A DNA stretch of 64,000 nucleotides. It comes from a virus. Lineage: Duplodnaviria > Caudoviricetes. Shown piece after piece: positions 4,870-51,099 of this stretch; position 1 is the stretch's first letter, and each line of letters starts with the position of its first letter. The position numbers and the translations under genes are program-made. The notes under the pieces are model-generated. The model made no database searches and was not told where the DNA came from. It was given only the letters and a program-made list of their open reading frames with translations. The stretch is from IMG/VR virus record IMGVR_UViG_3300014000_000001, positions 1 through 64,000 of that record; one strand, 5' to 3'.

Positions 4870-5214
4870 ATGAGTAATGCATTGATAAGTGTAGTGATAC
4901 ACAAAGGCGATTTACTCTATGGGAAAATAGCTCAAATCCATAGTTATTCATTGGACCAGCTAACGGTAAACTTGGCTAAAGAAACAACCGAAGCTCTATC
5001 TCTTATAGAATGTCATAAGTACACATTAGGTGTTATCAATTATGATAAAGCTATAGAGATGTTCACCCATATTTGGGAAACACACAAAAGCAAGAATCTT
5101 AGTGTTTGGTTTCCCAATGCTTTAAATCAGGAACAAGCTGATATTCGTAAACGTTTCTTAGCTTACATACACACCTTTTTAGAAACAGTTGATTCAGAGG
5201 TAAGACCATCATGA
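4870..5214 (+). CDS. hypothetical protein
   Basis: TATATTACAGAGGT leader upstream. Confidence 0.7.
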   Translation: MSNALISVVIHKGDLLYGKIAQIHSYSLDQLTVNLAKETTEALSLIECHKYTLGVINYDKAIEMFTHIWETHKSKNLSVWFPNALNQEQADIRKRFLAYIHTFLETVDSEVRPS

Positions 5215-5642
5215 CAGTTTATTACATTAGTAACACCAAAGAACTTCCAAAACATCACGCTGATCAAATGGTTAGAATCCATGTATTAGCAAAGACAGTT
5301 GTCGCATTTATTAATGAAATCAAATATGCCATTCGACAACACCACATTCAAAATGGAGAGCTTCCAGAAGCTATTATTTGGAAATTCACCTCAAACGATA
5401 AAATTGAGAATTATAATTCTCAATTACTCGTAGAGCAATCTTTGCTTAAATCTTATCCTGATCTTAAAGTTTATTCTACAGGATTAACTATTACAGCTCA
5501 ATCAATGGGTAAAGTTCACGGGATTGAATTTACTCTAAAGGATAATTTGGAATTTAGTGAATCGCTTAAAACCCAGAATTCCACCCAAGCAATGGTGATA
5601 GTTAAAAGAAATGGCAAGCTTACCATTAAGGATGCAGTATGA
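5211..5642 (+). CDS. hypothetical protein
   Basis: ATGA-coupled on both sides. Confidence 0.7.
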   Translation: MTVYYISNTKELPKHHADQMVRIHVLAKTVVAFINEIKYAIRQHHIQNGELPEAIIWKFTSNDKIENYNSQLLVEQSLLKSYPDLKVYSTGLTITAQSMGKVHGIEFTLKDNLEFSESLKTQNSTQAMVIVKRNGKLTIKDAV

Positions 5643-7255
5643 GCAATAGTGAAGAATCTGAAATTAAAGTTACTAATGAGGGTTGGGTTATCATCTTTAA
5701 AGATGATAATGAAAATATCCCTCAAACATTAATAGACGACATCATTAGGAAGCATAAACATATACATGCTATTTTTACCCTGCAGAAGGAATTGCTTCAA
5801 CAAACCAGAGTTAAAAAGTTCTTAGATAACTTTACTGGTAAAATTTACGTGTATAACTATTGTAATGATTTAGAACATGCATACCTAGTAGCTGACGCAT
5901 GTGAAATGATTGCAACTAAACCCGATGTTGAATTACTTTACCATATTCCCGTTACTTTCCCAGAGAGCAAACAACCCATGAAAGATGATGAATTGAAATA
6001 CGAACCAACTACATCTGAAGTTAAAACCACCCAGATCGTTTATGCCTTCGCAGAACAATATAATGAAGCCCAGAAAGCTTATTTGAAAGAACTAGGTGAA
6101 CAAGAAGGTGTTCACTTGATGGTGTTTGAACAAGCGGGTTACTCGGATTCAATGCTAAGTAAACTCATTCGTGGAATGAGTGCACCTCAATTGGTTTTGT
6201 TCTTTAATGTTCGTCATGAACAAAAAGAGAAAATTATTAATATCTTACGCAAAAATGATGTAAAGGGTTTAGTAACATTTGCTAACGCGGTTAAAAATCC
6301 AATTTTTGACCCTGAAGATAAAAAGCTTAACTATGTGGTTATTCCCTCCATTAACTCAAATGATCTAGCAAATAGTTACGATCCAAATAAAGCTACAGAA
6401 ACTGCATCATTAACAATGTCTTTTGAAGAAGCGATTCAAGTAGCTAAACGAGGCGTTCCAGTTCGCGCACTGGATTGGCCTGTTCAATCTTTCATTGGTG
6501 TGACTGACGGGCAGGTTGTTTTGGCTGAAAATATTTGGAGTAAACATAATCGAGCGTTCGCGGAACAAAATGGTGGTTTAGCAGTGGTGTATAACTCTTT
6601 TACCAAAAATGTAAACGGAGTTATTACCATGGGGTGGATACCAACCAATGCAGATTTATGGGATACTTGGGTAGTGTATGGCACTGCGCTTTATCCACAG
6701 AAAATCATGTTGAGTGAAGACCTCAATGAAGTTGCAATTGATTTCTCATTAGCTCAAGGTAAAGGACTTTATTCTGATAGCCATGCTTTCGCTGGACCGT
6801 TCCATTTGTTTTACGACACGATCTTTGAAGATGTGAAGCAAATGGGTAAGACTTTGTATATTACTCAGGATTCTGAATCTAAGAACAATGAAGTTTTGCA
6901 AATGATCTTAGATCTCATGGTAATATACCATTCGGAATCAGGTGAGGAGCAATTATCAGTTCCTGATGTTGTCGATGAGTATGAAGCCCAATATGTCGAT
7001 CTTTCTTTAGAATTTAATATTGGAACCAGTTACTTAGGTGAAGATCCAGGAGAGAAAGAAATTGTTGAGTATTTACCGCAGTTCATTGAAGACTGTGGAT
7101 ATACTTCGGCTTTAATTGATTTAGATTCGTTTAAAGGAAGAGAGTCGACCGTAGAAGCATTAGTTAAAGCTTTGGGTTTAACTACAGAATCCAATCCGAA
7201 ATTCTCGTGGGTGGGTTTATCTTTAAAAGAGAACACTGTACCTTATGTAGTATAA
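5639..7255 (+). CDS. multidomain protein with internal DUF2829/Tad2-like domain
   Basis: MSFEEAIQVAKRGVPVRALDW...MGWIPTNADLWDTW matches the family pattern MxFxEAxxxxKxGxxVxRxxW...GWxPxxxDxxxxDW. Confidence 0.65.
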   Translation: MSNSEESEIKVTNEGWVIIFKDDNENIPQTLIDDIIRKHKHIHAIFTLQKELLQQTRVKKFLDNFTGKIYVYNYCNDLEHAYLVADACEMIATKPDVELLYHIPVTFPESKQPMKDDELKYEPTTSEVKTTQIVYAFAEQYNEAQKAYLKELGEQEGVHLMVFEQAGYSDSMLSKLIRGMSAPQLVLFFNVRHEQKEKIINILRKNDVKGLVTFANAVKNPIFDPEDKKLNYVVIPSINSNDLANSYDPNKATETASLTMSFEEAIQVAKRGVPVRALDWPVQSFIGVTDGQVVLAENIWSKHNRAFAEQNGGLAVVYNSFTKNVNGVITMGWIPTNADLWDTWVVYGTALYPQKIMLSEDLNEVAIDFSLAQGKGLYSDSHAFAGPFHLFYDTIFEDVKQMGKTLYITQDSESKNNEVLQMILDLMVIYHSESGEEQLSVPDVVDEYEAQYVDLSLEFNIGTSYLGEDPGEKEIVEYLPQFIEDCGYTSALIDLDSFKGRESTVEALVKALGLTTESNPKFSWVGLSLKENTVPYVV

Positions 7256-7312: not shown

Positions 7313-7936
7313 ATGAATACAAATGAAATTCGATATCAAAACTTACCTAACTTCCCAGCTTTAGCTCATATTGTTGCGACTACTGAAGATGGATTAATGG
7401 GAATTGGTAACCACCTTCCTTGGAAAACTTTTAAACCAGATCTGCGGTTCTTTAAAGCTAAAACCACGGATCATGTTGTTATCATGGGTAACAATACGGT
7501 CTTATCTCTTCCATTTAAGTTAGAAGAACGGTATGTGGTTCGGTTATCAGATTGTAGACCAACGCCGATAGATCAGCTTAACGAAATCGAAAACAAAAGC
7601 GATGAATGTCTTTTATATAACGACTCATCTGCAGATGCATTAGATTCCATCCTTGTCCCAGTTGGTTTTAATGAAGATATGGTCTTTATTGCTGGAGGTA
7701 AAAAGGTCTATAATGAAACACTACCTTATGTTCACTTAGTTTATCGTAATGTATTACATGATGTTAAACTGATGCATCCTACAGATGGTTCTCAACCACT
7801 CCATTATTACCCTATTGAGCAACTGAAGGAGCACTTCATTTTAATTTCTTCCTCAATTGTTACAGAGGATGGCTCAAATTTAATTTGTGAAAATGAACCT
7901 TACATGACTAAAGAAATCTGGATGAGGAAGCCATAA
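7313..7936 (+). CDS. folA: dihydrofolate reductase
   Basis: IVAT...MGIGNHLPWK...DLRFFKAKT...VVIMG, FIAGGKKVY; start at ATG after ACAGAGGT. Confidence 0.9.
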   Translation: MNTNEIRYQNLPNFPALAHIVATTEDGLMGIGNHLPWKTFKPDLRFFKAKTTDHVVIMGNNTVLSLPFKLEERYVVRLSDCRPTPIDQLNEIENKSDECLLYNDSSADALDSILVPVGFNEDMVFIAGGKKVYNETLPYVHLVYRNVLHDVKLMHPTDGSQPLHYYPIEQLKEHFILISSSIVTEDGSNLICENEPYMTKEIWMRKP

Positions 7937-8415
7937 TGTGGTTTGCAGTTTTATATGTTTTCTGCTTGGCTGTATTTACTTGGATGATTATGTTTGAATG
8001 TATTCAGGTAATTCAAATCAACGCAAATAGTTATAAACTCAAAGATACTCGCTTTATCAGAGAGTTACCTTTCTTTAGATTGAAAACATCTGTCACGTAC
8101 TTGATATGTTTTGTTCTTTATAATTACATCCTAACTACTCGTACTCCATTGTTAGATGATCCTATTTATTCAAGATGGATGCCTATATTTAGTAAGGTAG
8201 GTGTTGTGGTTTGGGTTATTTCACTCTCAGGTATGTTCTTGATGTTAGGGAAAACCAGTAATTTATTTTCTAATTTTAAATCAGATAAGCAATTTAGACG
8301 GCATCAGTTTTATCATGTTGGATTAATGCTTGGATTTGGGTTTTTATTCCTAGCTGATATTCTTTTAGCTTTAATGAGGATTGTTTATAAAATTGGAATG
8401 AATGCAATTGCATAG
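7936..8415 (+). CDS. integral membrane protein (~4 TM)
   Basis: Four hydrophobic stretches; TAATG coupling to DHFR. Confidence 0.7.
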   Translation: MWFAVLYVFCLAVFTWMIMFECIQVIQINANSYKLKDTRFIRELPFFRLKTSVTYLICFVLYNYILTTRTPLLDDPIYSRWMPIFSKVGVVVWVISLSGMFLMLGKTSNLFSNFKSDKQFRRHQFYHVGLMLGFGFLFLADILLALMRIVYKIGMNAIA

Positions 8416-35796: not shown

Positions 35797-35828
35797 AATC
35801 AATGGGGAGCCTAGGCTCCCCATTGATT
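35797..35828 (-). terminator. CCTAGG-centred palindrome / terminator
   Basis: AATCAATGGGGAGCCT|AGGCTCCCCATTGATT with T-run on minus strand. Confidence 0.75.
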
Positions 35829-38800
35829 AAGCTGGTTTTTTCACAGAGATTGGATTAGTAACATCGGCAAACGGAGAAACTGGTGCAGGTTTACTCAGCA
35901 CATCTTTCTTTACTTCAAGTTGCGGGATAGTTAATCCTTGTTTGGTAATTGCAGAGTTTTCCTGAGAATTACTATTGGGATTAATCGATCTATTCGTACT
36001 TGAAGTGTTGCCGACCAATTGTTCAAGTAACGATAGTATCTTCTCCTGAACAACCAACTGTTTACCCAAAATCACATTAGTCTCACCCGACGGTGCTACA
36101 GTTTGTGGAGGTGGAGTATAAGTTTGACTGCTTGTTGTGGAAGCACTGCCATTACTGATTGAGTTCATTGTTTGGCTTACTTTAGCTGAACTATTCGATT
36201 TTGCAATTGGGGTATTGGCAATCGCTTGTGTACCCGCAGAAGCCTTAGCTGTTTCAGGAGCAACCATGTTCGTCGGCACTGCCCCAGTTTTACATAACTG
36301 AGATTGAGCACGAAGAATATAATGTTTAGCGCCTGAGGCTTTAGAGCTTGGGTACATTTGGTTCTGAGTAAAATCAGAGATCCAAGCCGTGCCATTGAAA
36401 ATACAGATATGTCCATATGGGGTTGGTTTACCTGTTTTATCAGTATATGAGCCTCTATCGAAACAAGCGATATCCCCTTTTTGAGGTTTAACCGTATTGA
36501 TCGTTCCAACATTGACCCATCCTAAGGATTGTAAAGCTTGCATGAGCTGATATGCGTGACCGAAACCACCTTTAATCTGACCCTTTAAATCTCCAGACTG
36601 TAAAGCAGCTCGAACATATTCAGCACACTTCCCTACATTCAAACCTTGACGCCACGGACCTTTACTTCTAGCTGTTACTGTTTGTGCGATTTTATCAATA
36701 TCCCAATCTGGAGCATTGGTAACTTTAGCAGTAGTAACCGCTTGAGCCTTTTGCGCAGTTGGACTAGATAAAGGAGTTGGTGTGGACTTATTCCCATACT
36801 TCGCATCCAGTGAAGCCATGGCGTTACCTATAATTCCACCCGCTTGCTTATTGGTTGCAGTCGGGGCAGCAATGGTTGGAGGTAAAGTAGTCGTAGCTTT
36901 TTGCGATTGTGGTTGAACTGGAGCGTTACGTTGAGTAAATGCATTACTGGTTTGAGATGAACCTTCTTTAGAAGCAGATGCATTTCTTGCAGTGAAAGCA
37001 TTATTAGTTGTCGTAGAAGATTCAAATCCTTTAGGATCTTTAGCCATTTGGGAATATTTCGCCCAATACTTCTTACGGTCTTCTAATCCGTTTAATCCCC
37101 CGTTCACTGCTTTTGTTGCACCGATAATATCGCCGCGTTGAGCAGCAGCTCTTCCACGTTTAGTCATGTTCGGATGCTGTGTCCAAAACCACACAGTGGC
37201 TAAACTTGCCCACGGTTCTTTTTCAACTAACTCAGGTTTACTTACAAAGTCCTGCCCTGCCCATTTAGAGAAAGCTGCATAGTTTGCTTTTCCTGTTAAC
37301 TGTATATAACCGCGACCTTTATATTTAGCTCCATCATTTGGACCATTGCCTAAATCTCTACGATTATTGTATTTGGCAAAATCAGCATCTTTACCGTATT
37401 CCCTCGTGGTTTTAAACCCGTTAGATTCATGAGCAGCTTGAGATAAAAGCATCGCTAGTTCAGTTGGATTGGTTATTCCAGCTTTCTTGGCGGTAGTTAT
37501 CAAGTTTTGTTCAGCTGCCTTGGCGTTACCGCCTCCGATTGAACTTACCTGATCACCCAACCATTGTCCAGCACTGTAAACACCACCTAACCCAACAGCG
37601 TTAGCGGCTAACCCAGCTGCATCACCAATGCCATCCATTGTTTCGCCAAAGTTACCACTTGTTATTTTATTCCAAGCAGTTGCTGCAGCGCTCTGGAAGT
37701 TTTTGATTTTGCTAGTGAGTCCGTCGATCATTTTATCGAATAAACTATCGGTCTGCTTATTGGCTTCTTGAGTCGTTTTTACGATTGCTTCTCGGTTTTG
37801 TTTCACTACAGCTTGAGCAGCTAATGACTGATATTTGACTGCCTTATTCGCCTCATCTACCGCTGTCTTGGTGGAAGGTGTTTTGGGCTTGTCTTTACCA
37901 TCTTTATTCATTTGCTTTTCAACTGCTTTGTCAGCTTCCGATTTACCTTTCTTATTCGCATCTAAAGGTGCATCTTCTGTTGCTGTTAAAGCTTTAGCTT
38001 TCTCAGGAGGTTTTGGAAGTTGAGAAATCTTATCTCTTAATTTACGAGAGATCTTCTCAACATCATTCATTCCCATTTCACATCGATCTGGATCTTCAAA
38101 CGGTGATTGTTTAATCATGTAAGGATTATGTTCAGTCGCTGTGAAATGGACTCCTTTTAAAAGTTGGGTTTGTTGACCGCGATCAAGCTTTTGTAAATCC
38201 ACAATATCAGGTTTACCAAGGATTTGTTTTAAGGTTTGGGCGTAAGAAGCAAACACTCTTAGGAAACGTTCTTTAAACCAAATCGAGAATGCAGGTAAGC
38301 GTTCTTGTTGTTCGGCAATATCTTGACCGTTTTCATCTTTAAACCCACAGATCTTCAAGATTTCATCAACGGCTTTTTGATCTTCCTTAAACGAAACACT
38401 TTTCACACCTACTTGGATTAGGCTTTGCGCGATGGTTTCCATCTTGGCAATCTTATCAGTAATTCCTGAGTCATTATGGTCGAAACCATATTGAGCCATT
38501 CTGAATCGATTCCAAGGGTTCTTACCATCTTTCCACATATTGTAAAGTGCTTTACCACCATACCATGCGATGGTTGCAGCAATACCCCACGGAGTAAGTA
38601 AACGGGCTCCTTTGAGTAACCAACTCGCAGTAGTAATACCACCACGAATCATAGCTCCAGTACCTGCCCAAGTTCCGGCACCTACTCGTGCAGCACCTGA
38701 AGCAACCTTACCAAGTGTTCCTGCCATTCCTGGAAGTTTAGTCGCAAGTTTAGTCGCGCCCCAAGCCGCGGCTTGACCAGCGCCTTTAACCCCAGCAACT

Positions 38801-41800
38801 GCACCTTTACCTAGAAGTTTACCACCTCCACCAACAATACCTTTAGCAAGCTTCCATGTTGCTCCTGGGAACATCATTGCGGCGTAAGGACCGTATGTCT
38901 TGACAAGATCCCAAGCTTTACTACCCATTCCTTTTTCAGGTTCTTGCTTATAAGGATCTTCTTTGGTATTTGGATCACCAGCTTCTGCATCGCCAGTCCA
39001 ATGTTGATAACCTTTGTAACCAGCATATGCAAGTCCAGCAGTGGCTAAACGTCCAGTCGTACTCCCTAACATCCATTTAGCTGCACCAAGTAAACCCTTA
39101 CCCTTACCGCCTTTACCTTCACCTACACCTGGAAGCAAGGCACCTAACAAACTACCGATAGGACCACCGCCGAGTTTAAGCGATAAAGCGCTACCTAACC
39201 AACCAATAGAACCTTTAAGTAAAGTACCAAATCCACCCAGTAAAGATGAACCCAGCCCACCTAATATCATACCGAAAGGAGACATCAACCCTTTAATTAA
39301 TTTCGAGATCCAAGATTCTTTCTTCTCTTTCTTCTCTTTCGGGTCTTTATCTTTACCTTTCTTGTTCTTGGCATTATCACGCTGGTCAGCCCAAGAACCT
39401 TTACGGAAGAAGTTCGTGAGTCCACGCATACCACCTTTAAACTTAGCAAGGGTTTGAATGTTTTTACCTGAAACCGTTTCAAGTCCAGTTTTAAGATCAG
39501 CTTCTGAGACAATAGTATTGCCTTTTTCGTCTTTGACTCCAGCCAATAAATCAGCATAGTCTTTGACAGGTTTACCATTGTCTGCACGGAAGTATTTACC
39601 TGACTTAATATCCATTGCCTTAATGAGAATGTCTTTTTGACCTTTGATACGAACATCTTCGATCTTAGTGATCATCTCATCGGCTTTATTCGCTCCAATG
39701 CGTTTCATGATTTGAGCATGGCGATGTAAACCACCAAACAGTCCTTCAAACTCACCTGCATTGATGTGGATAGCTTTACCATCAACGGTCATTAACCCTT
39801 TCTTTAAATCCTCTTCAGTGATGAGAAGTTGTTTACCTGTATCCATGACTGGGCCATCAATAAACTCAGGAATGGTAATCACCTTACCTGTCTTTTGACT
39901 TAAGTAGTGATTACTTTCAAATCCTTTCTTAGTTAAGACTGGAGTACTTGGGTTACCTTTGATATACACGTCGTAAGCAATTTTACGTTTCTTAATTTCA
40001 TCTTCAAAGAGTTCTTGGCGTTTATCCCCAGACATCTTTAAGAAGTTCATGAAGGCTTTACCTTTCGCTCCAGGAAGAGCAGCTTCTTTAAGGTAAGAAC
40101 CGAAACGTTCGGTCGCCGACATCATCAGTGGAAGTTTAAGTTTTTCACCCATTGCATCAACGAGTTGCGGGAGTTCTTCAACCGTGATCTTAATGTAGAA
40201 CCCATGCTCATTTTGCATCATGACCGCACCACTGATCCCGCTGTGGCTTTTGATCGGCTTGTCTTTACAGAATACTTTCTCTGCTTTAAACTGAGCAGCA
40301 GTAATACGTGGTTCGGTCTCACCTGCAATATAGATATCAATTGGGTTATTGTCGTAGTTTAGCCCGACTCGTTTTTCACCCATTGCAGACATCCAATTCA
40401 ATGCCTTACCACCATACTTGTTCACATACTTAGATGCATACTTTTGATATACTTCATTGGTACGTTTAAATGCCATGTTACGATATTGTTTAAGCTTAGA
40501 GATTTTCACATGTTCTTTTTCATTGTTAAAAAGTCCATCTGTTAATTGCTCTTCGGTTAAAACAACATTACCTTTATTTTGGACATCAATAACAGGACCC
40601 GTAATATCATGGTGGCTCCACAGAATGTTTCCTGTGTTCTTATCCATATAGCGACGTTCTTTAAAGCCCTCGGCAGTAAGGAGGAGCTTACCATTACGAT
40701 CGTAGATATCGATTGGTTTATCAAGAATAAACTTATCACGAGCATTCTTGGCTTTTTCCAAAGTGTCTCTAAAGCGTTCGGACTGTGCAAGGATAGCATA
40801 ACGTTTGCCTGCATATTCAGTTGCTGACATATAACGACGATTGGCTTCTTGCAAACCTAGCATTCGATATGGCTTACCTGCACGGGTTACAATCTCATTG
40901 TTGGCCAAATCGACAAATGAAACAATCACCGCACCTTCTTTATCAACAACAGTACCCGTCACCTCAGATGGGTTCTTAATCACACTGCCTGATTTTTGAT
41001 CAATGTATTCATGATTTCTAAACCCTTGTTTGGTTAAGAACGGAGTTCCTTTTCCTTTAAAGTAAAGATCAATTGGAAGATTAAACATCTTCGGATTTTC
41101 AGCTTCTTTTAAAGTTTGCGAAACCGCAGTCATGGTACGATCACGATCAAGTAAATGACTCTTAGTACTCATCCCTAGATTCTTAGCTGATTTCCAACCG
41201 GCTTGACCTAAAGACTTGCCTGTACTCCATGCGTCAGAACCAATCTTTTTACCAATGCCTGCTAGAGAGTTGACAATCTCAACATTAGTTCCCTCACCTT
41301 TAGGATCAATAAAACGATTAAACTTATCGTGAAGTTTATTGATTCCCATCTTACCTAAGCGAGAAGCATAAGCTTTAGGATCAGCCTTGGCTTTAGCTTG
41401 TTGTTGCTTCGTCCAGAGTTTCATCCCGTTCGCAAGACGACGTTTAGCAGGAAGCTTCTTATTAAGAACTGAAGCCATTTCTTCTTTGGTGAAGTTACCT
41501 ACACTAATATCTAAAGCTTGCCAGATTTTCTCAACTGCCATTTCTTCTTGCTCGTTAGCAAACTCTTTAGCTTTTGAGGTTAATCCTTTTAGACGCGCAC
41601 CTTCTTTAAATTCTTTCTCTGACTTAAACCCAAACAAGCGGTAATAAACACTGTTGATGGTATTGTCAGAGTTGATTAAAGGAGCCCCTAGCTTGTTGAT
41701 GGATTCGAGTAATGTTTTGTTGAAATCAGTAGCATCTTTAGAAACTACATATTCACCACCATGGGTTTTCACCAAATGCTCTTGATCGGGTTGCCCCTTA

Positions 41801-44586
41801 GTTGAACCTGTTTTCAAACGGGCTGTGTTTTCCAGATGAGATAAATTACCACCAGATGCAAAAGAAGGAATCCAACCACCAGAAGCATAACCTCGTTTAG
41901 CGTAAAGATCTTGGCGTTTCTTCCATTCTTTCTTAGATAGTAAACTTTGGAGTACGGCTTTGTATCGTTCACTGTCAGGTAAATTACGTGCAATAATACG
42001 ATCTAATATTCTGATCCTCGCGGCTTTGGCTAGGCGTTTCTTACCTGAATTTAGATCTTCGATATCTTTACGTTGTTGTTCCTGAAGCTCTTGCTGTTTG
42101 CGATCTAGAGTTGATTGAAGAGTTGCATTCTTTGCAGTGTAACCCATGCTCCAAGGACTGCCTAAGCGATTTGCAATCAGTTGGTTTTGATCAAATCCAA
42201 ACGCTGCGAAGCTATTAAACTTCTTGGTACCTTCTTGCTTGCGTTTAATCGCATCGAAACGAGAATCACTGCTATGGATGTATTCACCTGTGGTAGGGTG
42301 AATGAGGTAATCATCCCCTAAAGTCATTCCAGAGAATGCTAACCCGCCTTGATGTAAATCAGCAATATTTCTTAACCGAGTATTAGCTCTTTGAGCATCG
42401 CTTTGATGGGATGTACCTACGTTAGGCTGATAACGAAGCTTTTGCTTTTGACCCATATAGTCATAATCTTCATCGATTGCATGAATTTCATAACCATCTT
42501 CATCTCGCGATAAACGTCCATTTTGTTTATAATCCCTTGTGTATTGCCCGTAAAGGATTTCTTCAAAGTTTGGATTGATGGAATATACCCCATCGCTGGT
42601 TTCTATTATCGCTCCGCGTTTGATTAAGAATCTTAATCCCTCGGATGAGGTCTTCGCCATACGTTCAATTCCTTTCTCATCCATTACTGGCATTTTTCGA
42701 ATATTGACGTTTAGGTTAGAGAGCTCACGTTGCTTGCTATTATACTCTTTAAAACCCATCATGGAGATTTTTGCAATATCCATCACGGATTCACTATTCA
42801 TGAGCTGTTCCTGTAATTTTTCAGGAAGATTCATGAGTTTAGGGACTTTGAATAATAATTCACCTTTTACATCTGGCGGGGCTTTAAAGTTAGGCGTTAG
42901 TAATTCAAGAGGGTTCATGGTCCCTGAAGAAGCACGTTCTTTAATTAACCACTTTTTAATATAACCTACAGCTTTAGCACTGAGTAAGTGATTCTTATCA
43001 AATGCATTTAACCACTCATCTAGTGCATTGCTGGCTTGTTGGACTTGATCTTTTTTAACAACCTCATCCATCATGTTATCTTCAAGTTTCTTCGTATCTA
43101 CAAAGTCACCTGATTTAAAATCCCAAGACACGTCTTTAGCATCTTTCCCATGAGCTGCCCGGTAGGTGTTCATGTGGATCTTTTTAAGCCATCCTGGAAT
43201 AATATCAATTACCGTTAAACGGAAACGATTATCCATAAAGGCTGCTTTCTCTAAGTCTAAATCCTTAGCATTGTAAGCAGTTCGATCTCCAGAAATTGCT
43301 GCGTCTCTTAGATCGAAGAAGTCAACTAAACCATCAATGAGGTTATTACCAAAGCCGTTCTTTAATCCTTTATTAATGAGTGCTGGAGCTTGAGCAGTCA
43401 ATGCAGAAAGATTAGAACCATATACATCCCAACCACGCTTTTCCATCTGGGCACGGATTTTAGGAGATAGCCAGTCAGCGCCTTTACCGACTAATTTATC
43501 AATCCCCATCCCTAGACCCATTTGGCGTGCTAAGGCACCATAGTGTCCTGCAGCGGTACTACCATCTTCAACAGAGTCACGGGTGTTATCGTTGAACATG
43601 GAAAGGTTGGAACCAATCTCTTGCCAGAAGTTACTCATCTTACCGCGGATTTTACCAACCACTCGTTTGGTAAGTTGTGATCCTACTCCATCGAATGGAG
43701 CCATGATCCCGCCCATAACTTTCTGGGCAAGTGCTTGTTGGGCGATTTCCGAAGCATTGATCTTAAGATAATCTGGTAAGCCTGTATTTTTGTGGATAGC
43801 TTGCAGCTCTTCCATGCTCTCTTTACGATAAGCACTTAAGAGTTGTAATTGTCGTTGTTGGGTAACAAAGGTACGTGCTTGTAACTCAATACTCTTACGT
43901 TGGAAAGTATAAGTGATTTGCTCATTAAAACTTCTTTGAGCAATGATTCCTTTGTTAATACCCTCTAATAATTTATTGCCTTGGTTTTGACGTTCAGCGG
44001 ATTGTTCTTTATCCACCATATCGGCTTCAAAGCGTTCATCATCAACTTTCTGACGTTGCTCATTGGAAGCATTTTGCGCCTGCATATGCGCGCCGAAGGT
44101 TTCATCTAAAATAGATTGAATCTTCAGTTCATCGAGTTGATCTTCAGAAGGAGCGCCAGAAGAAGAACGTTCTTCTTCATTTGCCCAAGCACTAAGTCTT
44201 TTTAGTCCTAATTTATCTGTAACCGAACTAAACGATCTTACAACACCCTTAACATCCTTACGGACTTTTTCCCATTCTTTTTGTTGGTCTCGCCAAAGTG
44301 ATGCCACTTCATTTGAGACAGTATCATAACTTTCAAGGACAGGAGTATAATCTGACGGCAAAGCTTTTTTCATGAGCTCACGTCTAAGCTTGGCATCATT
44401 TTTTAAAAAGCTTAGATGGTCAGCCACATCCTCTTTTAATTTCGATGTGAGGGTTGCTTTACGACCAGAGTCTTCAGCATCTGCTCCATCAAAGTTAAAA
44501 TCCATATCATCGAATTCTGAGAAATCGATATCATCACTAGAGCTGGTATTCCTAGCTCCTAGTTTACTTTTTCCAAATCCGAACAT
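35827..44586 (-). CDS. giant tail-associated (tape-measure-like) lysin, phiKZ gp181-like, with GH19 and CHAP-like domains
   Basis: 2919 aa; HESNGF...YKGRGYIQLTGKANY...VNGGLNGLEDR (GH19); GKCAEYVR...GDIACF...YGHICIF...WISDF (CHAP-like); divergent from the beta'-like gene. Confidence 0.8.
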   Translation of the reverse strand: MFGFGKSKLGARNTSSSDDIDFSEFDDMDFNFDGADAEDSGRKATLTSKLKEDVADHLSFLKNDAKLRRELMKKALPSDYTPVLESYDTVSNEVASLWRDQQKEWEKVRKDVKGVVRSFSSVTDKLGLKRLSAWANEEERSSSGAPSEDQLDELKIQSILDETFGAHMQAQNASNEQRQKVDDERFEADMVDKEQSAERQNQGNKLLEGINKGIIAQRSFNEQITYTFQRKSIELQARTFVTQQRQLQLLSAYRKESMEELQAIHKNTGLPDYLKINASEIAQQALAQKVMGGIMAPFDGVGSQLTKRVVGKIRGKMSNFWQEIGSNLSMFNDNTRDSVEDGSTAAGHYGALARQMGLGMGIDKLVGKGADWLSPKIRAQMEKRGWDVYGSNLSALTAQAPALINKGLKNGFGNNLIDGLVDFFDLRDAAISGDRTAYNAKDLDLEKAAFMDNRFRLTVIDIIPGWLKKIHMNTYRAAHGKDAKDVSWDFKSGDFVDTKKLEDNMMDEVVKKDQVQQASNALDEWLNAFDKNHLLSAKAVGYIKKWLIKERASSGTMNPLELLTPNFKAPPDVKGELLFKVPKLMNLPEKLQEQLMNSESVMDIAKISMMGFKEYNSKQRELSNLNVNIRKMPVMDEKGIERMAKTSSEGLRFLIKRGAIIETSDGVYSINPNFEEILYGQYTRDYKQNGRLSRDEDGYEIHAIDEDYDYMGQKQKLRYQPNVGTSHQSDAQRANTRLRNIADLHQGGLAFSGMTLGDDYLIHPTTGEYIHSSDSRFDAIKRKQEGTKKFNSFAAFGFDQNQLIANRLGSPWSMGYTAKNATLQSTLDRKQQELQEQQRKDIEDLNSGKKRLAKAARIRILDRIIARNLPDSERYKAVLQSLLSKKEWKKRQDLYAKRGYASGGWIPSFASGGNLSHLENTARLKTGSTKGQPDQEHLVKTHGGEYVVSKDATDFNKTLLESINKLGAPLINSDNTINSVYYRLFGFKSEKEFKEGARLKGLTSKAKEFANEQEEMAVEKIWQALDISVGNFTKEEMASVLNKKLPAKRRLANGMKLWTKQQQAKAKADPKAYASRLGKMGINKLHDKFNRFIDPKGEGTNVEIVNSLAGIGKKIGSDAWSTGKSLGQAGWKSAKNLGMSTKSHLLDRDRTMTAVSQTLKEAENPKMFNLPIDLYFKGKGTPFLTKQGFRNHEYIDQKSGSVIKNPSEVTGTVVDKEGAVIVSFVDLANNEIVTRAGKPYRMLGLQEANRRYMSATEYAGKRYAILAQSERFRDTLEKAKNARDKFILDKPIDIYDRNGKLLLTAEGFKERRYMDKNTGNILWSHHDITGPVIDVQNKGNVVLTEEQLTDGLFNNEKEHVKISKLKQYRNMAFKRTNEVYQKYASKYVNKYGGKALNWMSAMGEKRVGLNYDNNPIDIYIAGETEPRITAAQFKAEKVFCKDKPIKSHSGISGAVMMQNEHGFYIKITVEELPQLVDAMGEKLKLPLMMSATERFGSYLKEAALPGAKGKAFMNFLKMSGDKRQELFEDEIKKRKIAYDVYIKGNPSTPVLTKKGFESNHYLSQKTGKVITIPEFIDGPVMDTGKQLLITEEDLKKGLMTVDGKAIHINAGEFEGLFGGLHRHAQIMKRIGANKADEMITKIEDVRIKGQKDILIKAMDIKSGKYFRADNGKPVKDYADLLAGVKDEKGNTIVSEADLKTGLETVSGKNIQTLAKFKGGMRGLTNFFRKGSWADQRDNAKNKKGKDKDPKEKKEKKESWISKLIKGLMSPFGMILGGLGSSLLGGFGTLLKGSIGWLGSALSLKLGGGPIGSLLGALLPGVGEGKGGKGKGLLGAAKWMLGSTTGRLATAGLAYAGYKGYQHWTGDAEAGDPNTKEDPYKQEPEKGMGSKAWDLVKTYGPYAAMMFPGATWKLAKGIVGGGGKLLGKGAVAGVKGAGQAAAWGATKLATKLPGMAGTLGKVASGAARVGAGTWAGTGAMIRGGITTASWLLKGARLLTPWGIAATIAWYGGKALYNMWKDGKNPWNRFRMAQYGFDHNDSGITDKIAKMETIAQSLIQVGVKSVSFKEDQKAVDEILKICGFKDENGQDIAEQQERLPAFSIWFKERFLRVFASYAQTLKQILGKPDIVDLQKLDRGQQTQLLKGVHFTATEHNPYMIKQSPFEDPDRCEMGMNDVEKISRKLRDKISQLPKPPEKAKALTATEDAPLDANKKGKSEADKAVEKQMNKDGKDKPKTPSTKTAVDEANKAVKYQSLAAQAVVKQNREAIVKTTQEANKQTDSLFDKMIDGLTSKIKNFQSAAATAWNKITSGNFGETMDGIGDAAGLAANAVGLGGVYSAGQWLGDQVSSIGGGNAKAAEQNLITTAKKAGITNPTELAMLLSQAAHESNGFKTTREYGKDADFAKYNNRRDLGNGPNDGAKYKGRGYIQLTGKANYAAFSKWAGQDFVSKPELVEKEPWASLATVWFWTQHPNMTKRGRAAAQRGDIIGATKAVNGGLNGLEDRKKYWAKYSQMAKDPKGFESSTTTNNAFTARNASASKEGSSQTSNAFTQRNAPVQPQSQKATTTLPPTIAAPTATNKQAGGIIGNAMASLDAKYGNKSTPTPLSSPTAQKAQAVTTAKVTNAPDWDIDKIAQTVTARSKGPWRQGLNVGKCAEYVRAALQSGDLKGQIKGGFGHAYQLMQALQSLGWVNVGTINTVKPQKGDIACFDRGSYTDKTGKPTPYGHICIFNGTAWISDFTQNQMYPSSKASGAKHYILRAQSQLCKTGAVPTNMVAPETAKASAGTQAIANTPIAKSNSSAKVSQTMNSISNGSASTTSSQTYTPPPQTVAPSGETNVILGKQLVVQEKILSLLEQLVGNTSSTNRSINPNSNSQENSAITKQGLTIPQLEVKKDVLSKPAPVSPFADVTNPISVKKPA

Positions 44587-44660
44587 AGTAGTCTACTCTG
44601 TAAGGTAAATTCTAATTTAATCAAATGATTTCCGCTATTTTTATTTAGAGGTTTAATAAA

Positions 44661-46109
44661 ATGCTTAAACCCATGAATCCAGCCAGTATTGCGATCTTTA
44701 AAGCTGAAGCTTCAAAGTTTCGACATGTGGGTCGTGTGAAGGTATTAGATGTCTTCCAAAACAATACTCGTGACTTCCATAGTGAAGGTTTATTCTCCAC
44801 TGAAATCTTTGGACGGGTTGGTTCTAATGAACGTTTGACTCGTTTCGGTTATATTGATATTCATGTTCCGATTCTCCATCCACGTGTCTTTACCAAGCTT
44901 TGTAATTTGAAACAGCTCTACAAAGAAATCATGGCAGGTAAAGAGTATGCCATTTGGGATGCTAAAGAGGGAGATTTCGTTAAATCCGATCAGATGGACG
45001 GTGAGACAGGTTATCAGTTCTTTATCTCTCACCTACCTGAACTTAAACTTAAACGCACCCAATCTAATCTACGTGATAATAAAATCAAAGTAGTGAAGAA
45101 CAATTTAGATCGAGCATTAACTGAATACATTTTGGTAATGCCTGCGGGTTACCGCGATCTAGAAGTAGATGAACATGGTGGTACTGACCAAGCTGAAATT
45201 AATGATTTCTATCGAACGCTGATTAAAATCTCCAATACTTTATCTACGATTAATGATCTAAACTCTCCAATCATTGATAAAGCCCGCTTTTCATTACAAA
45301 TGGCTTTTAATGAGTTACATGACTATTTAATGAGTAACTCAACCAAAGGTAAGGGTTCATTCTTTAACTCTAAATTTGGTCGACGTAAAATTAAATATGG
45401 TACGCGTAATGTCTGGGCGGTTGCATCGGTATCAGTTAAACACTTAGATGACCCAACCAATTTTATGCCTGATCATACTCAGGTAGGTTTATTTCAAGCA
45501 GTGAAAGCAACTGAACCTTTATTCATTCATCATTTGCGTACAGGTTATGTTGATCAGGTATTCAATGGCGAAAACTCAGCTTGGCTCATCGATCCTAAAA
45601 CGTTGAACCGAGTTGAGGTTCCCTTAAAACCTAGAACCATAGATCGTTGGAAAACTGTTGCAGGTTTAACTAAGATCATTAACCAGTTTGAAAATGTACA
45701 AAAACGTAATGATTACATTATGGTGGATGGACATTATCTAGGTTTAATCTATCGTCGTGAAGGACGAGTTCGTCTGGTTTATAGTTTAGATGATGTTCCT
45801 GTAGATCGTGCGGAGGATAAAGATTATATTTATCCAATTACCTATGGCGAGTTATTCTTCTTGATTTGTAACCGTTATCAAGGTGAATGTCCTGCTGATA
45901 TTACTCGTTACCCGATTGCTGGAGCTGAATCAATCTACCCATCTTATAACTATCTAATGTCAACTGCCGAACCTTATCGCGTGATTGAATTAGATGAAGA
46001 ATGGAAAGACACTACAAACGTAACTTCACAATTTCCAAACACGGAGGTATCGATTTGGTTTGATACCATGGGACCACACCCGATTAAAGTACCTGAAGCC
46101 GGTGGCGAT
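44661..46109 (+). CDS. rpoC: virion RNA polymerase beta' N-terminal subunit (phiKZ gp180-like), exon 1
   Basis: EGLFSTEIFG, RFGYIDI, VMPAGYRD, TRYP; ends ...EAGGD at the 5' splice site. Confidence 0.9.
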
Positions 46110-46594
46110 AAAATGTATGTAAATTAACTACATGTTAATTGAAATGTCCTCTTGTAGGGAAACCTGCTTGAGTTTTCTCTCGAAATTGTCTGGAACTCCA
46201 TTGAAATATGGACACCATAAGAGCCAACACTACCTGGTAGTAACTATAGGTGCGAAAGCAGAAACAAGTGTGTTGGATGACCTAAGGTTAAATCCTAAGG
46301 GTTAGTAGAATTGGGAACCAGCAGCGAAGGTATTGTTGAGATAACAAAACCGCGTTCAACGACTATCCCTTTGCCAGGGAGTAGGGGGTAGCACCTCCGA
46401 AGTGAGAGACCGATAACAGTAGAGTTATCCGGAATGCAGTTAACCGAGCATTCTGCCAAACGTGATACTCGTGGGATAAGAGATAGTCTACTCTGTTCTG
46501 GAATTGACCAGAATATACAAAGGGTGAAAGCCCCAGCGGGTACTTAAATGCGTACCGCCTTTGGAAGTTAAAGCGATCCGAAGGGGATAATAGG
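46110..46594 (+). mobile_element. group I intron (IA2-like), no embedded ORF
   Basis: P AATTGTCTGGAA 46184, Q AACCAGCAGC 46316, R GTTCAACGACTA 46354, S AAGAGATAGTCT 46478; P3 TCTCTC/GAGAGA; P7 GACTA/TAGTC; P7.1 and P7.2 hairpins; exon ends in U, intron ends in G. Confidence 0.92.
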
Positions 46595-46765
46595 TATGAT
46601 GGAGACACGGGCAACGATAATGTAAATATGTCAGAAGAAGCAAAAGAAGATACTAGAAAATATCTGAATTCATTAAATGCACATATTGATGTGGATGGTA
46701 ACATGATTGGTTCTCCTTTGATTGATCCAATCAAACGTATCATCTTTAACATGACTGGAGCTTAA
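46595..46765 (+). CDS. rpoC: beta'-like subunit exon 2 (56 aa)
   Basis: YDGDTGNDNVNMSEEAKEDTRKYLNSLNAHIDVDGNMIGSPLIDPIKRIIFNMTGA*; completes the DYDGD motif; stop lies 2 nt before next ATG. Confidence 0.88.
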   Translation, partial: YDGDTGNDNVNMSEEAKEDTRKYLNSLNAHIDVDGNMIGSPLIDPIKRIIFNMTGA

Positions 46766-46767
46766 TC

Positions 46768-49700
46768 ATGCAAATCATGATTGATAAGTTTGTACGTAGC
46801 TATTGTGTCCGTAAAAAAGATCAAGTTCAAAATCCCCCAATTCACAAATTAAAAGAGTTGGTATTTCCTCGTAATTCTCAAATTCATTTTCTCTCTAAAG
46901 ACGGCAATGAAATTGGGATTACTTCAACAAATCCAATCTTAAACAACATGGATAAAGGTAAAGTCATTTCAGAATTTGTGACCTCTTATTCTGTTGAGAA
47001 AGCAGGTGGGTTTAAACGTGTCACCATGGATATGAAAGAACCTATCCGTGATTACATGCGTCGCAATAAAGGGATTGCAGATGCACGCTTTTCTAAATCT
47101 GATATGCTCCTAGATAAGAACATCATTGTGAGTAACTACGGGTTAATGGAAGAGAATGTTAAATACTTTAACAATCCTCGTCAATGGTGGATACGTTTTC
47201 AAAACTACTGGGGTTCGGTATTTAAAGATGTAGAAGATAAGGTACGAAGTAATCGTCGAAACCACTTCATCATTATGAATATCCCAGATGTGATGCCGTC
47301 TGTTTCTCAATTTCGTAAATTTGCAGAAGTTGAAAACAATCAAAGTATTGATAAAATTGCCAACTCAGAACGGATGCTCATTGCTCAATTCTGGTTATGG
47401 TTTATGGATAGCCCACGCTGTATCCTACCTAAAGATCCAAATGTCACCAATCGCATGTATGTGATCTTTACATGGCATGATCAATGGTTATGTTTTAATC
47501 TTGCCAGTATCCGTACTTACATGAAAACATCAAGTAATCCTAAAGGTAGTTGGGATACTTTTCGAATGCAGCGTAATTTTGTCATTATGCTTCTCACTAT
47601 GCAATTTGGTTTGATTGACCATATGGCGTTTGCTGATGAAGAGGGTGAGGAAGCACATGATGCGCCACTCACTGAAGAAGAGAAGTATGAGCTTCAACAA
47701 GACCTTAAAGATGACACCTTAGGGGTGCTGTCTCAAGACCCTGTTGATTCGGTTAAGGAAAAGATTACCCAAGCGTTCGATACATTGGAAGTAGATATTG
47801 CTGAAAAAGAATCTATCGAAAATGTAGAAGCTAAACGTAATAAGAAAGCTGATAGTTTACTTGATGAATTAGAAGTGGTGAATGCCAATACTGTTGATAA
47901 TATTCAAGAAGCTTCCCCAAATACCGAACAGCAGATCTTAAAAGATGATGATGGGGAAGCGGTAAAAACTATTTCTCGAGAGCAGGTGTTAATCGATTAC
48001 CAAGTTTATCAACCCAAAGAGCTTAACATCGAAGAGAAGTTCGATGAACATCTTAAAGATCAAGTAGTGAAAGGTTCAGTTACCCCACAGCAGATGAAGC
48101 GTTTAGAGAAGCTTGCTCGTCGTTATAAAGAGATCCCTGATCCTAAAACTGGAGTGAGTTCTTTAGAAGTTGCTGCTAAGATCGAAGCTAAAGATTTGGT
48201 AATCTCTAAAGATGAGAAGATCACTGATAAAATCAATATGGTGAATGATGAATCCATGTTGAAATCTACTTTAGTGTCTTACAATAAAAAGTACATCAGT
48301 ACTGTAATGCATAAGGATGTGTATAACTCCGTTTTAGCTTTACAACGTCGTGGGATTGCTGTACAGAACTATTCGATTAAACGAGTAACTCAGCTTGGCG
48401 ATGATTACGAAGTCCATTCGGTGAAATTAGTTCCGATTGATGGTGAGCCTTCTACTGTGAACTTTAAAGTTCCAGTGATTGACGATCACGGAGTATTCCA
48501 ATCTCGTGGAATTCGCCTTCGTATGGCAGCCCAACGAGTTGATATTCCAATTCGTAAGATCGGTCCCGATGAAGTTTCTTTGACTTCTAGCATGTCTAAG
48601 ATGTTTGTGGAACGCTGTCAGTTTGTTGCTTATTCTCGCGATCAATGGTTAAAGTCTAAACTCTTAGAGTTGGTCGGTGATCAATCTGGAGTAAAGGTGA
48701 GCTTTGGCAAAGTCTTTAAAAATGATGAGGATGTGCCGTTGGCTTATTCTCGGTTTGCCCGTTCAGTTAAACGCATTCGTTTTCAAGATTATGATTTAAA
48801 CTTTGATGTGAGTAAATTAGATTCATTCTTTGGAGATGAAGTTGTAAAAGCCTTTGATCCCACTCGTGGTACTCAAATTCTACTTGGTAAAGGTAAGGAC
48901 ACATTACTGATCTTAACCAAAGCAGGAATCGTACATGAGTGCGGTATTGACAACAAAGATCACAAAGAGCTTGGCCCCTTAGAAGAGTTCATTGGATTAG
49001 ATACCTCATCTGCACCTAAAGATTGTGCTGATTTAATTGTGGTCTCTAAGAATATTCCGTTAGGTTTTGTCTTAGGTTATTATGTTGGTTTAGGGAACCT
49101 ACTTAAAACCTTAGATGTTAAATATCAATTCATTCCGAAGAATACTCGAACCGCTCGTTTAGGTAAAGATTCCATAGAGATTAAGTTCTCAGATGGAACG
49201 CTTGAAATCTACGATTATGATTACAAAGCACAATTAGTTTTACAAGGATTCAACCGCTATCATCGTTTTGTTAAACGTTATCCAATGGTAGAGTTTGATA
49301 AAAAGAGTGTCTATGGGTTAATTCTTAATGAGGTGGGATTACCTGCACGATACGAGCGTGAGCTTCGCATCTTAAGAGATATGTGGGTTGATCCAATCAC
49401 TGAAGAAGAATTAAAACGTATGGGTGAACCTACGGATTTTGTTCTTCTACTTTTACGTGCTGCTGAATTACTTGAAAAGGATATGCATCCTGAAGCAATG
49501 GATCGTGCATATCAACGCGATCGCGGTTATGAACGTATTAGTTCCATGATCTATGATGAATTGGTGAAATCTATCCGTGCTTATGAATCAACGCCTGTAC
49601 GAGCTAAAGCAAAAGTTACCATGAACCCTGAAGCGGTTTGGATGAAGTTAATTGGAGATGAAACCACAGCCCCAATTGAAGAATCTAACCCAATCCACGC

Positions 49701-51099
49701 ATTAAAAGATATTGAGCGTGTGGTGTATCGTGGTTCAGGCGGTCGTAGTTCACGTACCATGAATGCTGAAAACCGTAAGTTTAGTAAAAATGCGATTGGT
49801 GTTGATTCAATGGTAACTGTGGATAATGGTGATGCGGGTACTGTGCGTTATTTATCTGCTAATCCAAACTATAATTCCATTCGTGGAACAATCAATGTTT
49901 TAGATAAATTCGACCAATCTGTGAATAGTAGTTGTCTGGGGACTTCTCAATTATTAGCCCCTGCTTTGGATCTAGATGATCCAAAACGAATCAGCTTCAA
50001 TTCTATTCAAAATAGTCGTACAACGAACTCAGAAGGTTCACATTTATCCCCAACGCGTACAGGTTATGAGTATGTTCTTCCTTGGCGTTCATCTGACCTT
50101 TATGCAACAATGGCGACAGAAGAAGGCACTGTTACACGTGTAACTGATGTAGCTATTGTAGTGAAATATAAATCAGGGAAAGAAGTAACTGTGGAATTAG
50201 GTAAACGCGATGGTAAGTGGGCAGGTAAGATTATTCCGCACAATGTCATTACTGAACTTAAAGAAGGTCAGAAGGTTAAAGTAGGTGACACCATAGCTTA
50301 TAATCCAATGTTCTTTACCGTGGATAAGTTAGGTGGTGCTTTAGCTTATAAAACTGGGGTACTGGCACGCGTTGGATTAATTGAAGATGAATTCACTAAT
50401 GAAGACTCGTCTGAAATTTATCAGGGTTATGCAGATAAGCTCGGTACGAAAAACTCTGAGGTTCGAACCATTGAAGTGAGTTTCGATAAAGATGTATTTG
50501 AGTTACTTAAAGTAGGCACTCAAGTAGATTACGATTCAGTACTTTGTGTATTGCGTAATAACATCTCAGGGGTAGAGGATAAGTACATGCAAAGTTCTTT
50601 GGACTCTTTACGTGATATTTCTTCAACTTCTCCTCGTGCGAAACATAGTGGTGTGATCACTAACATCTCAGCAGTTTATGTTGGTGACGTAGAAAACATG
50701 AGTCCAACATTACAAGCTATCGTAGCAGCATCAGATCGTAACCTTTACAAGAAGGCACGTGATTTGAACAAAGAACGTGTAACTGGTCAGATGAAGGCAG
50801 GTACTCGACGTGAAGGTAAAATCTTAGAACCAAATACTGTATTGATCGAAGTAACGATTGATATCACTCAAGATATGGGTGTGGGTTCAAAAGTTGTATT
50901 TGGCCATCAGATGAAATCTGTGGTTTCTCGTGTATTCAGGGAAGAGTTTACGACTCAAGATGGTGTGGGGTATGATGCTAAATTTAGTTATACTTCTAAC
51001 ATTAAACGTATTGTGGAATCGATGATTTTAACTGGAATCTGTAACACATTCTCAGTGAATATCGGTCAGGCAGCGTGTGAATTATACGAGAAAGATTAG
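46768..51099 (+). CDS. rpoB: virion RNA polymerase beta subunit, large part (phiKZ gp178-like)
   Basis: QRVDIPIRKI, GSGGRS, TVDNGDAG, DDPKR, NEDS, GSKVVFGHQMKSV. Confidence 0.88.
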   Translation: MQIMIDKFVRSYCVRKKDQVQNPPIHKLKELVFPRNSQIHFLSKDGNEIGITSTNPILNNMDKGKVISEFVTSYSVEKAGGFKRVTMDMKEPIRDYMRRNKGIADARFSKSDMLLDKNIIVSNYGLMEENVKYFNNPRQWWIRFQNYWGSVFKDVEDKVRSNRRNHFIIMNIPDVMPSVSQFRKFAEVENNQSIDKIANSERMLIAQFWLWFMDSPRCILPKDPNVTNRMYVIFTWHDQWLCFNLASIRTYMKTSSNPKGSWDTFRMQRNFVIMLLTMQFGLIDHMAFADEEGEEAHDAPLTEEEKYELQQDLKDDTLGVLSQDPVDSVKEKITQAFDTLEVDIAEKESIENVEAKRNKKADSLLDELEVVNANTVDNIQEASPNTEQQILKDDDGEAVKTISREQVLIDYQVYQPKELNIEEKFDEHLKDQVVKGSVTPQQMKRLEKLARRYKEIPDPKTGVSSLEVAAKIEAKDLVISKDEKITDKINMVNDESMLKSTLVSYNKKYISTVMHKDVYNSVLALQRRGIAVQNYSIKRVTQLGDDYEVHSVKLVPIDGEPSTVNFKVPVIDDHGVFQSRGIRLRMAAQRVDIPIRKIGPDEVSLTSSMSKMFVERCQFVAYSRDQWLKSKLLELVGDQSGVKVSFGKVFKNDEDVPLAYSRFARSVKRIRFQDYDLNFDVSKLDSFFGDEVVKAFDPTRGTQILLGKGKDTLLILTKAGIVHECGIDNKDHKELGPLEEFIGLDTSSAPKDCADLIVVSKNIPLGFVLGYYVGLGNLLKTLDVKYQFIPKNTRTARLGKDSIEIKFSDGTLEIYDYDYKAQLVLQGFNRYHRFVKRYPMVEFDKKSVYGLILNEVGLPARYERELRILRDMWVDPITEEELKRMGEPTDFVLLLLRAAELLEKDMHPEAMDRAYQRDRGYERISSMIYDELVKSIRAYESTPVRAKAKVTMNPEAVWMKLIGDETTAPIEESNPIHALKDIERVVYRGSGGRSSRTMNAENRKFSKNAIGVDSMVTVDNGDAGTVRYLSANPNYNSIRGTINVLDKFDQSVNSSCLGTSQLLAPALDLDDPKRISFNSIQNSRTTNSEGSHLSPTRTGYEYVLPWRSSDLYATMATEEGTVTRVTDVAIVVKYKSGKEVTVELGKRDGKWAGKIIPHNVITELKEGQKVKVGDTIAYNPMFFTVDKLGGALAYKTGVLARVGLIEDEFTNEDSSEIYQGYADKLGTKNSEVRTIEVSFDKDVFELLKVGTQVDYDSVLCVLRNNISGVEDKYMQSSLDSLRDISSTSPRAKHSGVITNISAVYVGDVENMSPTLQAIVAASDRNLYKKARDLNKERVTGQMKAGTRREGKILEPNTVLIEVTIDITQDMGVGSKVVFGHQMKSVVSRVFREEFTTQDGVGYDAKFSYTSNIKRIVESMILTGICNTFSVNIGQAACELYEKD

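Follow-up and report, generated by a model that had tools for sequence, protein, structure and literature searches.

The question raised by this locus is why the gene for a virion RNA polymerase (RNAP) subunit stops just where its active site should begin. The locus lies at 44661-46765 of a 64,000-nucleotide stretch of DNA, here called the window, which covers positions 1 to 64,000 of the IMG/VR virus record IMGVR_UViG_3300014000_000001 (Duplodnaviria; Caudoviricetes). The gene codes for the N-part of the beta' subunit and is a homologue of phiKZ gp180. The open reading frame (ORF) listed there, 44661-46127 on the plus strand, as are all features below unless otherwise stated, encodes 488 amino acids (aa), ends with ...PEAGGDKMYVN (...HPIKVPEAGGDKMYVN) and contains no DxDGD. 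An earlier note, based on the letters alone, had described this ending, on which sequence and ORF list agree, and had attributed it to a group I intron. The sequence comparisons reported here make it highly probable that 46110-46594 are the boundaries of a genuine, functional group I intron.

The split gene and its joined product

The ORF runs five codons beyond GGC GAT (46104-46109) into a stretch with stops in every frame, and a second frame, TAT GAT GGA GAC, opens at 46595 and continues for 56 codons to a stop at 46763-46765. By joining 46109 to 46595, which removes the 485 nucleotides (nt) 46110-46594, a protein of 539 aa plus stop is obtained, reading ...EAGGD-YDGDTGN... at the join. The insertion separates the first Asp codon from the remainder of the Mg-binding D[FY]DGD motif: exon 1 (44661-46109) ends with GGC GAT, for Gly and the first Asp of the catalytic motif, and exon 2 (46595-46765) encodes the following 56 aa plus stop, YDGDTGN...NMTGA. 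Since exon 1 ends with GAT, the intron runs from AAAA to AGG and exon 2 begins with TATG, the boundary cannot slide and the cut is unique for the 539-aa protein. Upstream of the motif, exon 2 lacks a start codon of its own, its first in-frame ATG being at 46628, and ribosomes on unspliced RNA are stopped by an in-frame TAA five codons into the intron (46125-46127), ahead of the ribozyme core.

The two exons match consecutive parts of the same protein family. In PHROG 2986 ("RNA polymerase beta subunit", 539 positions), exon 1 corresponds to positions 3-484 (E 5.8e-155) and exon 2 to positions 485-538 (E 2e-8), so that the exons abut between 484 and 485, and a full-length match including the D[FY]DGD motif is reached only after splicing. 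Exon 1 is 32% identical to phiKZ gp180 (E 4.7e-77) and weakly matches Pfam Rpb1 domain 1. Uninterrupted homologues are found in Vibrio phage BONAISHI (556 aa) and Klebsiella phage Eowyn (541 aa): they align without gaps across the join, their ..LGAD FDGD.. with ..AGGD YDGD.. of the joined protein, and exon 2 matches their C-termini. The GGDYDGD variant is present in many metagenomic homologues, and the homologues in two deposited relatives are annotated as virion-associated RNAP beta' subunits. Neither a search of PDB sequences with exon 1 nor a megablast search of phages with 44000-47500 returned any match; a search for related loci by a single protein gave no pattern match, and its profile version succeeded.

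An uninterrupted allele is available at much closer range. A 238.6-kb ENA contig (L007), whose protein P0003 shows 96% aa identity and whose region is 95.2% identical at the nt level, contains no intron and no Rfam hit; it reads GGA GCA GAC followed by CAC GAC GGA GAT, the join falling at the same base as 46109/46595. On these alignments the joined 539-aa protein is real and colinear with its uninterrupted homologues, and the restoration of GGDYDGD in 539 aa, proposed in the earlier note, is upheld by BONAISHI and Eowyn, by PHROG 2986 and by the L007 join alike. The polymerase would presumably be packaged into the virion of this phage.

Group I identity and predicted fold

The Rfam group I model RF00028 matches 46109-46510 over its whole length (1-253), with 44.2 bits and an E-value of 7.6e-10 (4.6e-11 in the whole 232,790-base virus record, where it is the sole such match). 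The consensus junctions are found in the Rfam alignment, namely J3/4 as AAA, J6/7-P7 as GUUCAACGACUA and J8/7-P7' as AAGAGAUAGUC, and the core P3-P8, with its P3/P7 pseudoknot, forms 6 of 6 pairs in P3, 7 of 7 in P4 and 5 of 5 in P7, as had been claimed for P3 and P7. The minimum free energy is -144.3 kcal/mol, compared with -121.8 +/- 6.1 for shuffled sequences (z = -3.67).

The strongest test of group I identity, within what sequences can tell, is the comparison with the intron of a metagenomic phage contig, L008 (Logan, SRR22388205), which sits in the same codon and is 88% identical over 367 nt, in a gp180 homologue that is 66% identical. The helix model was mapped onto the pairwise alignment of the two introns, and pairs were counted in Python: 91 are unchanged, 7 remain paired after one-sided and 14 after two-sided changes, and 12 appear broken. 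The 14 double compensatory changes are spread over P2, the P5 extension (two), P6a, P7.1, P7.2, P9.1 (three), P9.2 (two) and P9.3 (three). Ten of the 12 broken pairs fall in P8b and P9, where insertions and deletions shift the register and both helices fold separately in L008 with another sequence; only two terminal pairs are truly lost. The identification as group I made in the earlier note is thereby sustained, by the RF00028 E-value, by the L008 intron with its HNH ORF and by the compensatory changes.

The helices are arranged as follows. P2 (46149-46172) is a hairpin with a GAAA loop (RNAfold -10.7 kcal/mol); its two U-U mismatches are U-A pairs in L008, and one pair shows a double change. 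The 5' strand of P3 (46176-46181) pairs with GAGAGA at 46404-46409, both strands being placed by the Rfam alignment. The region 46186-46324 holds P4 (46186-93/46318-24, with a bulged U46189 that is deleted in L008) and P5 (46197-99/46314-16), which carries a branched extension of about 105 nt (46203-46308) whose two double changes lie in 46224-30/46270-76. P6/P6a follows at 46325-46352, also from the Rfam alignment, with a double change at 46336/46344. J6/7 and the 5' strand of P7 occupy 46354-46365, 46361-65 pairing with 46484-88, and J8/7 with the 3' strand of P7 occupies 46476-46488. Between P7 and the 3' strand of P3, the extra helices P7.1 (46367-79) and P7.2 (46384-98), typical of subgroup IA and already named in the earlier note, each contain one double change.

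The P8 domain (46410-46475) consists of three hairpins (46412-29, 46430-55 and 46460-72) closed by CC/GG, and the L008 version of the middle one folds independently with a different sequence. The 3' part (46494-46594) comprises P9 (46494-515), kept in L008 with altered sequence, P9.1 with a GAAA loop (46522-33), P9.2 (46536-58), P9.3 (46559-83) and a tail to the terminal G46594; P9.1-P9.3 together account for eight double changes. The three GAAA loops, at 46159-62, 46254-57 and 46526-29, are the GNRA-capped stems expected from the first reading of the sequence.

Assignment to subgroup IA2 is plausible on two grounds only, the presence of P7.1/P7.2 and the blastn likeness of the core: 46248-46385 matches, at 72-85% identity, regions without annotation in phages of Staphylococcus, Enterococcus, Listeria and Enterocloster, and these regions are presumably introns themselves.

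Proposed splicing and its alternatives

T46109 (U in the RNA) precedes the 5' site and G46594 closes the intron, as the earlier note had it. The putative internal guide, U-GUCCUC at 46145-46151, would form P1 by the pairs G46107-C46148 and A46108-U46147, the U46109-G46146 wobble at the splice site and A46110-U46145. A GUCC guide is common to at least seven introns at the same site (L008, Vibrio phage Yong MS32, L011, L014, L032, L040 and L084), where it lies 10-110 nt inside, and its pairing is extended by one base if G is the last base of the preceding codon. Two alternatives to GUCC at 46146 as guide, GUU at 46134 and G46154, were rejected because they pair less well. The exact pattern GAAGTGAGAGACCGATAAC had no match in viral contigs, and the 18 loci retrieved there by a 16-mer around the guide were all discarded as chance matches.

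The pre-mRNA would fold into P1-P9.3; free guanosine would attack after U46109, held as a U-G wobble by the GUCC at 46146, and exon 1 would then attack after the terminal G46594. In the spliced mRNA, the ligated exons would read ..GGCGAU followed by UAUGAUGGAGAC.., and its translation would give the 539-aa protein with GGD-YDGD, recognizable by a junction peptide ..EAGGDYDGDTGN.. (..VPEAGGDYDGDTGNDNVNMSEEAK). From unspliced RNA, the 488-aa product ending at the TAA at 46125 would be made, without two of the three catalytic Asp, and an active virion polymerase would therefore depend on splicing. We infer the catalysis and the order of events; the sequence, the boundaries, the homology, the covariation and the intron-less allele were observed. 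Taken as a whole, the conserved features indicate an intron that is probably active in self-splicing.

Several results weigh against an active intron. The RF00028 score falls below the curated cut-off (44.2 vs 50 bits), a scan of the whole window at the gathering threshold, which is that same 50 bits, was empty, and the intron appears only under an E-value threshold. The covariance-model check that the earlier note had proposed was thus borne out as to a full-length match, and failed as to the gathering score. P1 is short (three exon pairs and one intron pair), with a C-C mismatch at -4, and two further pairs compete with P2, so that the pairing with GUCCUC near 46146 is as imperfect as it had been judged by eye. 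The guide is separated from the 5' site by some 35 nt that include a small hairpin, and inspection by eye yielded no convincing P10 pairing of the first bases of exon 2 (UAUGAU) with those 5' of the guide. The sequencing runs examined gave no RNA of this phage with ligated exons; their RNA contigs did not cover the exons and contained only intron fragments and an intron-less relative. In phiKZ, a long-read transcriptome study found no splicing at the intron loci, gp179 included, under its conditions (PMC10914365).

A 161-nt contig of a wastewater metatranscriptome (X18) is identical to 46394-46554 and may derive from DNA, and fragments of related introns were also present in RNA libraries. The only joint seen, in run X10 (probably DNA), belongs to an intron-less relative of about 89% identity, joined at 46109. 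In run X1, DNA contigs (Logan) cross the 5' junction (45860-46173, no differences) and the 3' junction (46553-46900, two differences); X1 may be the source sample and so is not independent.

Among the alternatives, a decayed, inactive relic fares best. The gene would then be broken in this metagenomic genome, or the phage would use a truncated beta' fragment, and the low RF00028 score, the weak P1, the lack of an endonuclease ORF and the lack of any RNA sign of splicing in the runs examined would be accounted for. We nevertheless consider it improbable. The low score is due to long insertions, namely the branched P5 extension, P7.1/P7.2 and the three-hairpin P8 domain, and the L008 intron passes the cut-off at 53.7 bits. 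J3/4, J6/7, J8/7, P3, P4 and P7 fit the consensus and the differences from L008 are mostly compensatory. Exon 2 retains its frame, its length and its conserved residues, and both junctions recur in the X1 contigs, with the reservation on their source given above. Moreover, with no start codon ahead of YDGD in exon 2, splicing is the only way to supply two of the three catalytic Asp.

An artificial junction, in which intron DNA of another phage was joined into the contig during assembly, is very improbable. It is suggested by the nature of the record, a metagenome assembly, and by the circulation of related introns in the same kinds of samples; however, separate X1 contigs span both junctions, again with X1 as a possible source sample, and the insertion is base-exact and in the phase that restores the motif. 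Removal by another route (protein-level splicing, ribosomal bypass or a group II intron) has no specific support and can be practically dismissed, as the full group I core is present and no other Rfam family scores, stops in all frames exclude an intein, and 485 nt far exceeds the lengths known for ribosomal bypass.

Mobility, the insertion site and related introns

The functional group I intron thus preferred appears to have moved. Between the window and L008, identity is 82% for the intron (from guide to 3' end), 66-67% for the exons and 57% for the next gene; since the intron is more alike than its surroundings, it has moved between lineages. The exon ends adjoining it are diverged from the intron-less L007. 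On the 5' side (46076-46109), blastn identity with L007 breaks at 46075, and 15 of the last 30 nt are identical, as against 95.2% overall, in the manner of a co-conversion tract; on the 3' side (46595-46624), 20 of 30 nt are identical, against the same overall value, and blastn identity resumes at 46598. As far as sequence comparison goes, this is the pattern of homing with co-conversion from a diverged donor, or of a selected cleavage-resistant site. Most likely, the intron would have entered by homing, co-converting about 30 nt of each flank, and would then have lost its endonuclease ORF, or never have had one. At the protein level, L007:4404-4437 encodes ..NPSRLAGLGAD-HDGD.., and window 46076-46109 encodes ..HPIKVPEAGGD-YDGD..; the His replacing Phe/Tyr in the catalytic motif is seen in L007 and also in L017 and L029.

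No intron-encoded homing endonuclease was found within 46110-46594 by ORF and family searches, the ORFs present (57 aa on the plus strand, 129 and 54 aa on the minus strand) having no protein-family match. The intron is assigned to a family, represented by L008, Vibrio phage Yong and phiKZ gp179, whose members home into precisely this position by means of HNH endonucleases. The HNH ORF of the L008 intron (507 aa) lies downstream of the 5' splice site and ahead of the guide, apparently within the P1 loop, and that of the Yong MS32 intron (315 aa) comes only after the guide, in the region of P2; this different placement fits an independent gain or loss of the ORFs. Outside the window, at 110884-112017, the genome contains a free-standing HNH gene (PHROG 59/959); its 377-aa product shares 26% identity with the L008 enzyme and could act in trans on intron-less alleles.

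Interruption of the motif is frequent. It was found in 19 of 80 IMG/VR relatives, RF00028 scoring above cut-off in 12 of the 16 scanned, and about 24 of the best 120 proteins from a collection of 5.8 billion stop at or just after G[GA]D. Judged from these sequences, the motif is a hot spot, with at least four insertion sites within seven codons, and the several insertion points and tandem introns of relatives mark it clearly as a contested site.

Individual relatives illustrate the variety of arrangements. L032 (4947-5700) and L063 (4929-5824) contain two tandem group I introns inside DFDGD, each scoring 64-80 bits with RF00028, with a micro-exon of 6 nt, TTCGAT, between them. Exon 1 of L032 ends with GCT GAT at 4946, intron 1 spans 4947-5355, the micro-exon 5356-5361 and intron 2 5362-5700, after which GGT GAT ACA follows; the guide of intron 2, GUCG, is complementary to the micro-exon. 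Within the same seven codons, other insertions fall after base 1 (L027, L028) or base 2 (L064) of the Phe codon and after DFD (L083 and proteins P0099 and P0111); L087 and L088 are also interrupted, at boundaries that were not placed. In L024, a second RF00028 match (7885-8306, 55.3 bits) lies in the following gene, for the beta subunit, some 1.6 kb past exon 2, and may correspond to the site of PhiPA3 gp210.

An intron without endonuclease could be retained because it is protective, removing the HNH target of co-infecting chimalliviruses by occupancy and by its diverged flanks. We regard this as a possibility, but as a rather doubtful one. It is equally tentative that the HNH enzymes would act as weapons, as does PhiPA3 gp210 on the neighbouring subunit gene, with the catalytic motif as the contested site. 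If protection were the case, an endonuclease-free intron would be a cheap shield and not a dying parasite. Together, the window intron, the intron-less sister genome and the endonuclease-bearing sister intron offer a system for the study of homing, co-conversion and immunity to intron endonucleases between jumbo phages.

Annotation is affected as well. By gene-calling programs this essential gene is divided into a "hypothetical" protein of 484-488 aa and a 45-aa ORF, as happens too in the phiKZ RefSeq entry, in the records of Vibrio phage Yong and in roughly one fifth to one quarter of the metagenomic relatives; surveys of catalytic sites in jumbo-phage polymerases therefore mis-score these enzymes as lacking DFDGD.

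The neighbouring genes serve as context only. The next gene (46768-51099) encodes the beta subunit of the virion RNAP, phiKZ gp178-like, and is uninterrupted (PHROG 3148, E 0; synteny); upstream, a divergent gene on the minus strand (35827-44586) encodes a 2919-aa tail lysin, phiKZ gp181-like, with Glyco_hydro_19 in the L007 homologue. The order is that of phiKZ gp181-gp180-gp178. When phiKZ chimallin (gp54) was compared with the window's genome, no match was obtained at E 0.001, a result uninformative on nucleus formation.

Compared with known systems, the intron resembles those of T4 td/nrdB, of Staphylococcus phage Twort/K-like and of SPO1-like phages, which we take to be IA2: P7.1/P7.2 lie between P7 and P3', the intron is short and has an early in-frame stop, and the IA2 phage introns, too, are located in essential genes at catalytic motifs. 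It differs from them in its host gene, its large branched P5 extension and its three-hairpin P8 domain. The introns of Vibrio phages Yong MS32 and XC31 share its site, its GUCC guide and, in the core, GUUCAACGACUAUC (RF00028 69.9 bits in Yong MS32), but the HNH ORFs of 315 aa in Yong and 507 aa in L008 have no counterpart in the window. In the Yong MS32 record, exon 1, the HNH ORF and exon 2 are entered as three hypothetical proteins. Both phiKZ and Vibrio phage Yong have been cultured, and both need this polymerase.

Introns are also known from beta subunit genes. The PhiPA3 gp210 intron, of group I and equipped with an HNH homing endonuclease, likewise sits in a chimallivirus virion RNAP gene beside conserved Asp residues (PMC11620839) and acts in phage-phage competition (Birkholz et al. 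2024, Science; PMC11620839). Its host, however, is the beta subunit gene, homologous to gp178, which is the uninterrupted gene at 46768-51099 here. In 201phi2-1, an intron in the gene for the N-part of the virion RNAP beta subunit is backed by proteomics and two spliced reads (PMC11512511).

The closest parallel is phiKZ gp180/gp179, in an orthologous gene with the same neighbourhood and an identical insertion point, after the Asp codon of ..GAD-FDGD. Its gp180 ends with ..LAPLGAD and a stop; next come the HNH gene gp179 and, ahead of gp178, an unannotated exon-2 frame, FDGDTVSFNAVYSEEA..., and the RF00028 match reaches 92.2 bits. Unlike the ORF-less intron of 485 nt in the window, that of phiKZ measures about 1.44 kb and contains gp179, and blastn showed no likeness between the two. 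In the RefSeq entry (NC_004629.1, 186158-187785, minus strand; our L110), gp180 is annotated as 490 aa ending ..LGAD, gp180 and gp178 are labelled structural head proteins, and about 500 nt between gp179 and gp178 are unannotated; they hold the intron core and the exon-2 frame FDGDTVSF...MTGEPKQRD. The products of phiKZ gp72 and gp179 have been described as intron-encoded homing endonucleases in RNAP operons (PMC12676376), and an account that refers to Ceyssens 2014 and Mesyanzhinov 2002 lists introns for gp55 and gp180 (PMC11512511). Given the phiKZ intron at the identical site, this literature and the interruption of about one quarter of the relatives, the window intron is an ordinary addition to a known class: it brings no new mechanism, and adds an endonuclease-free member to the known introns of chimallivirus RNAP genes.

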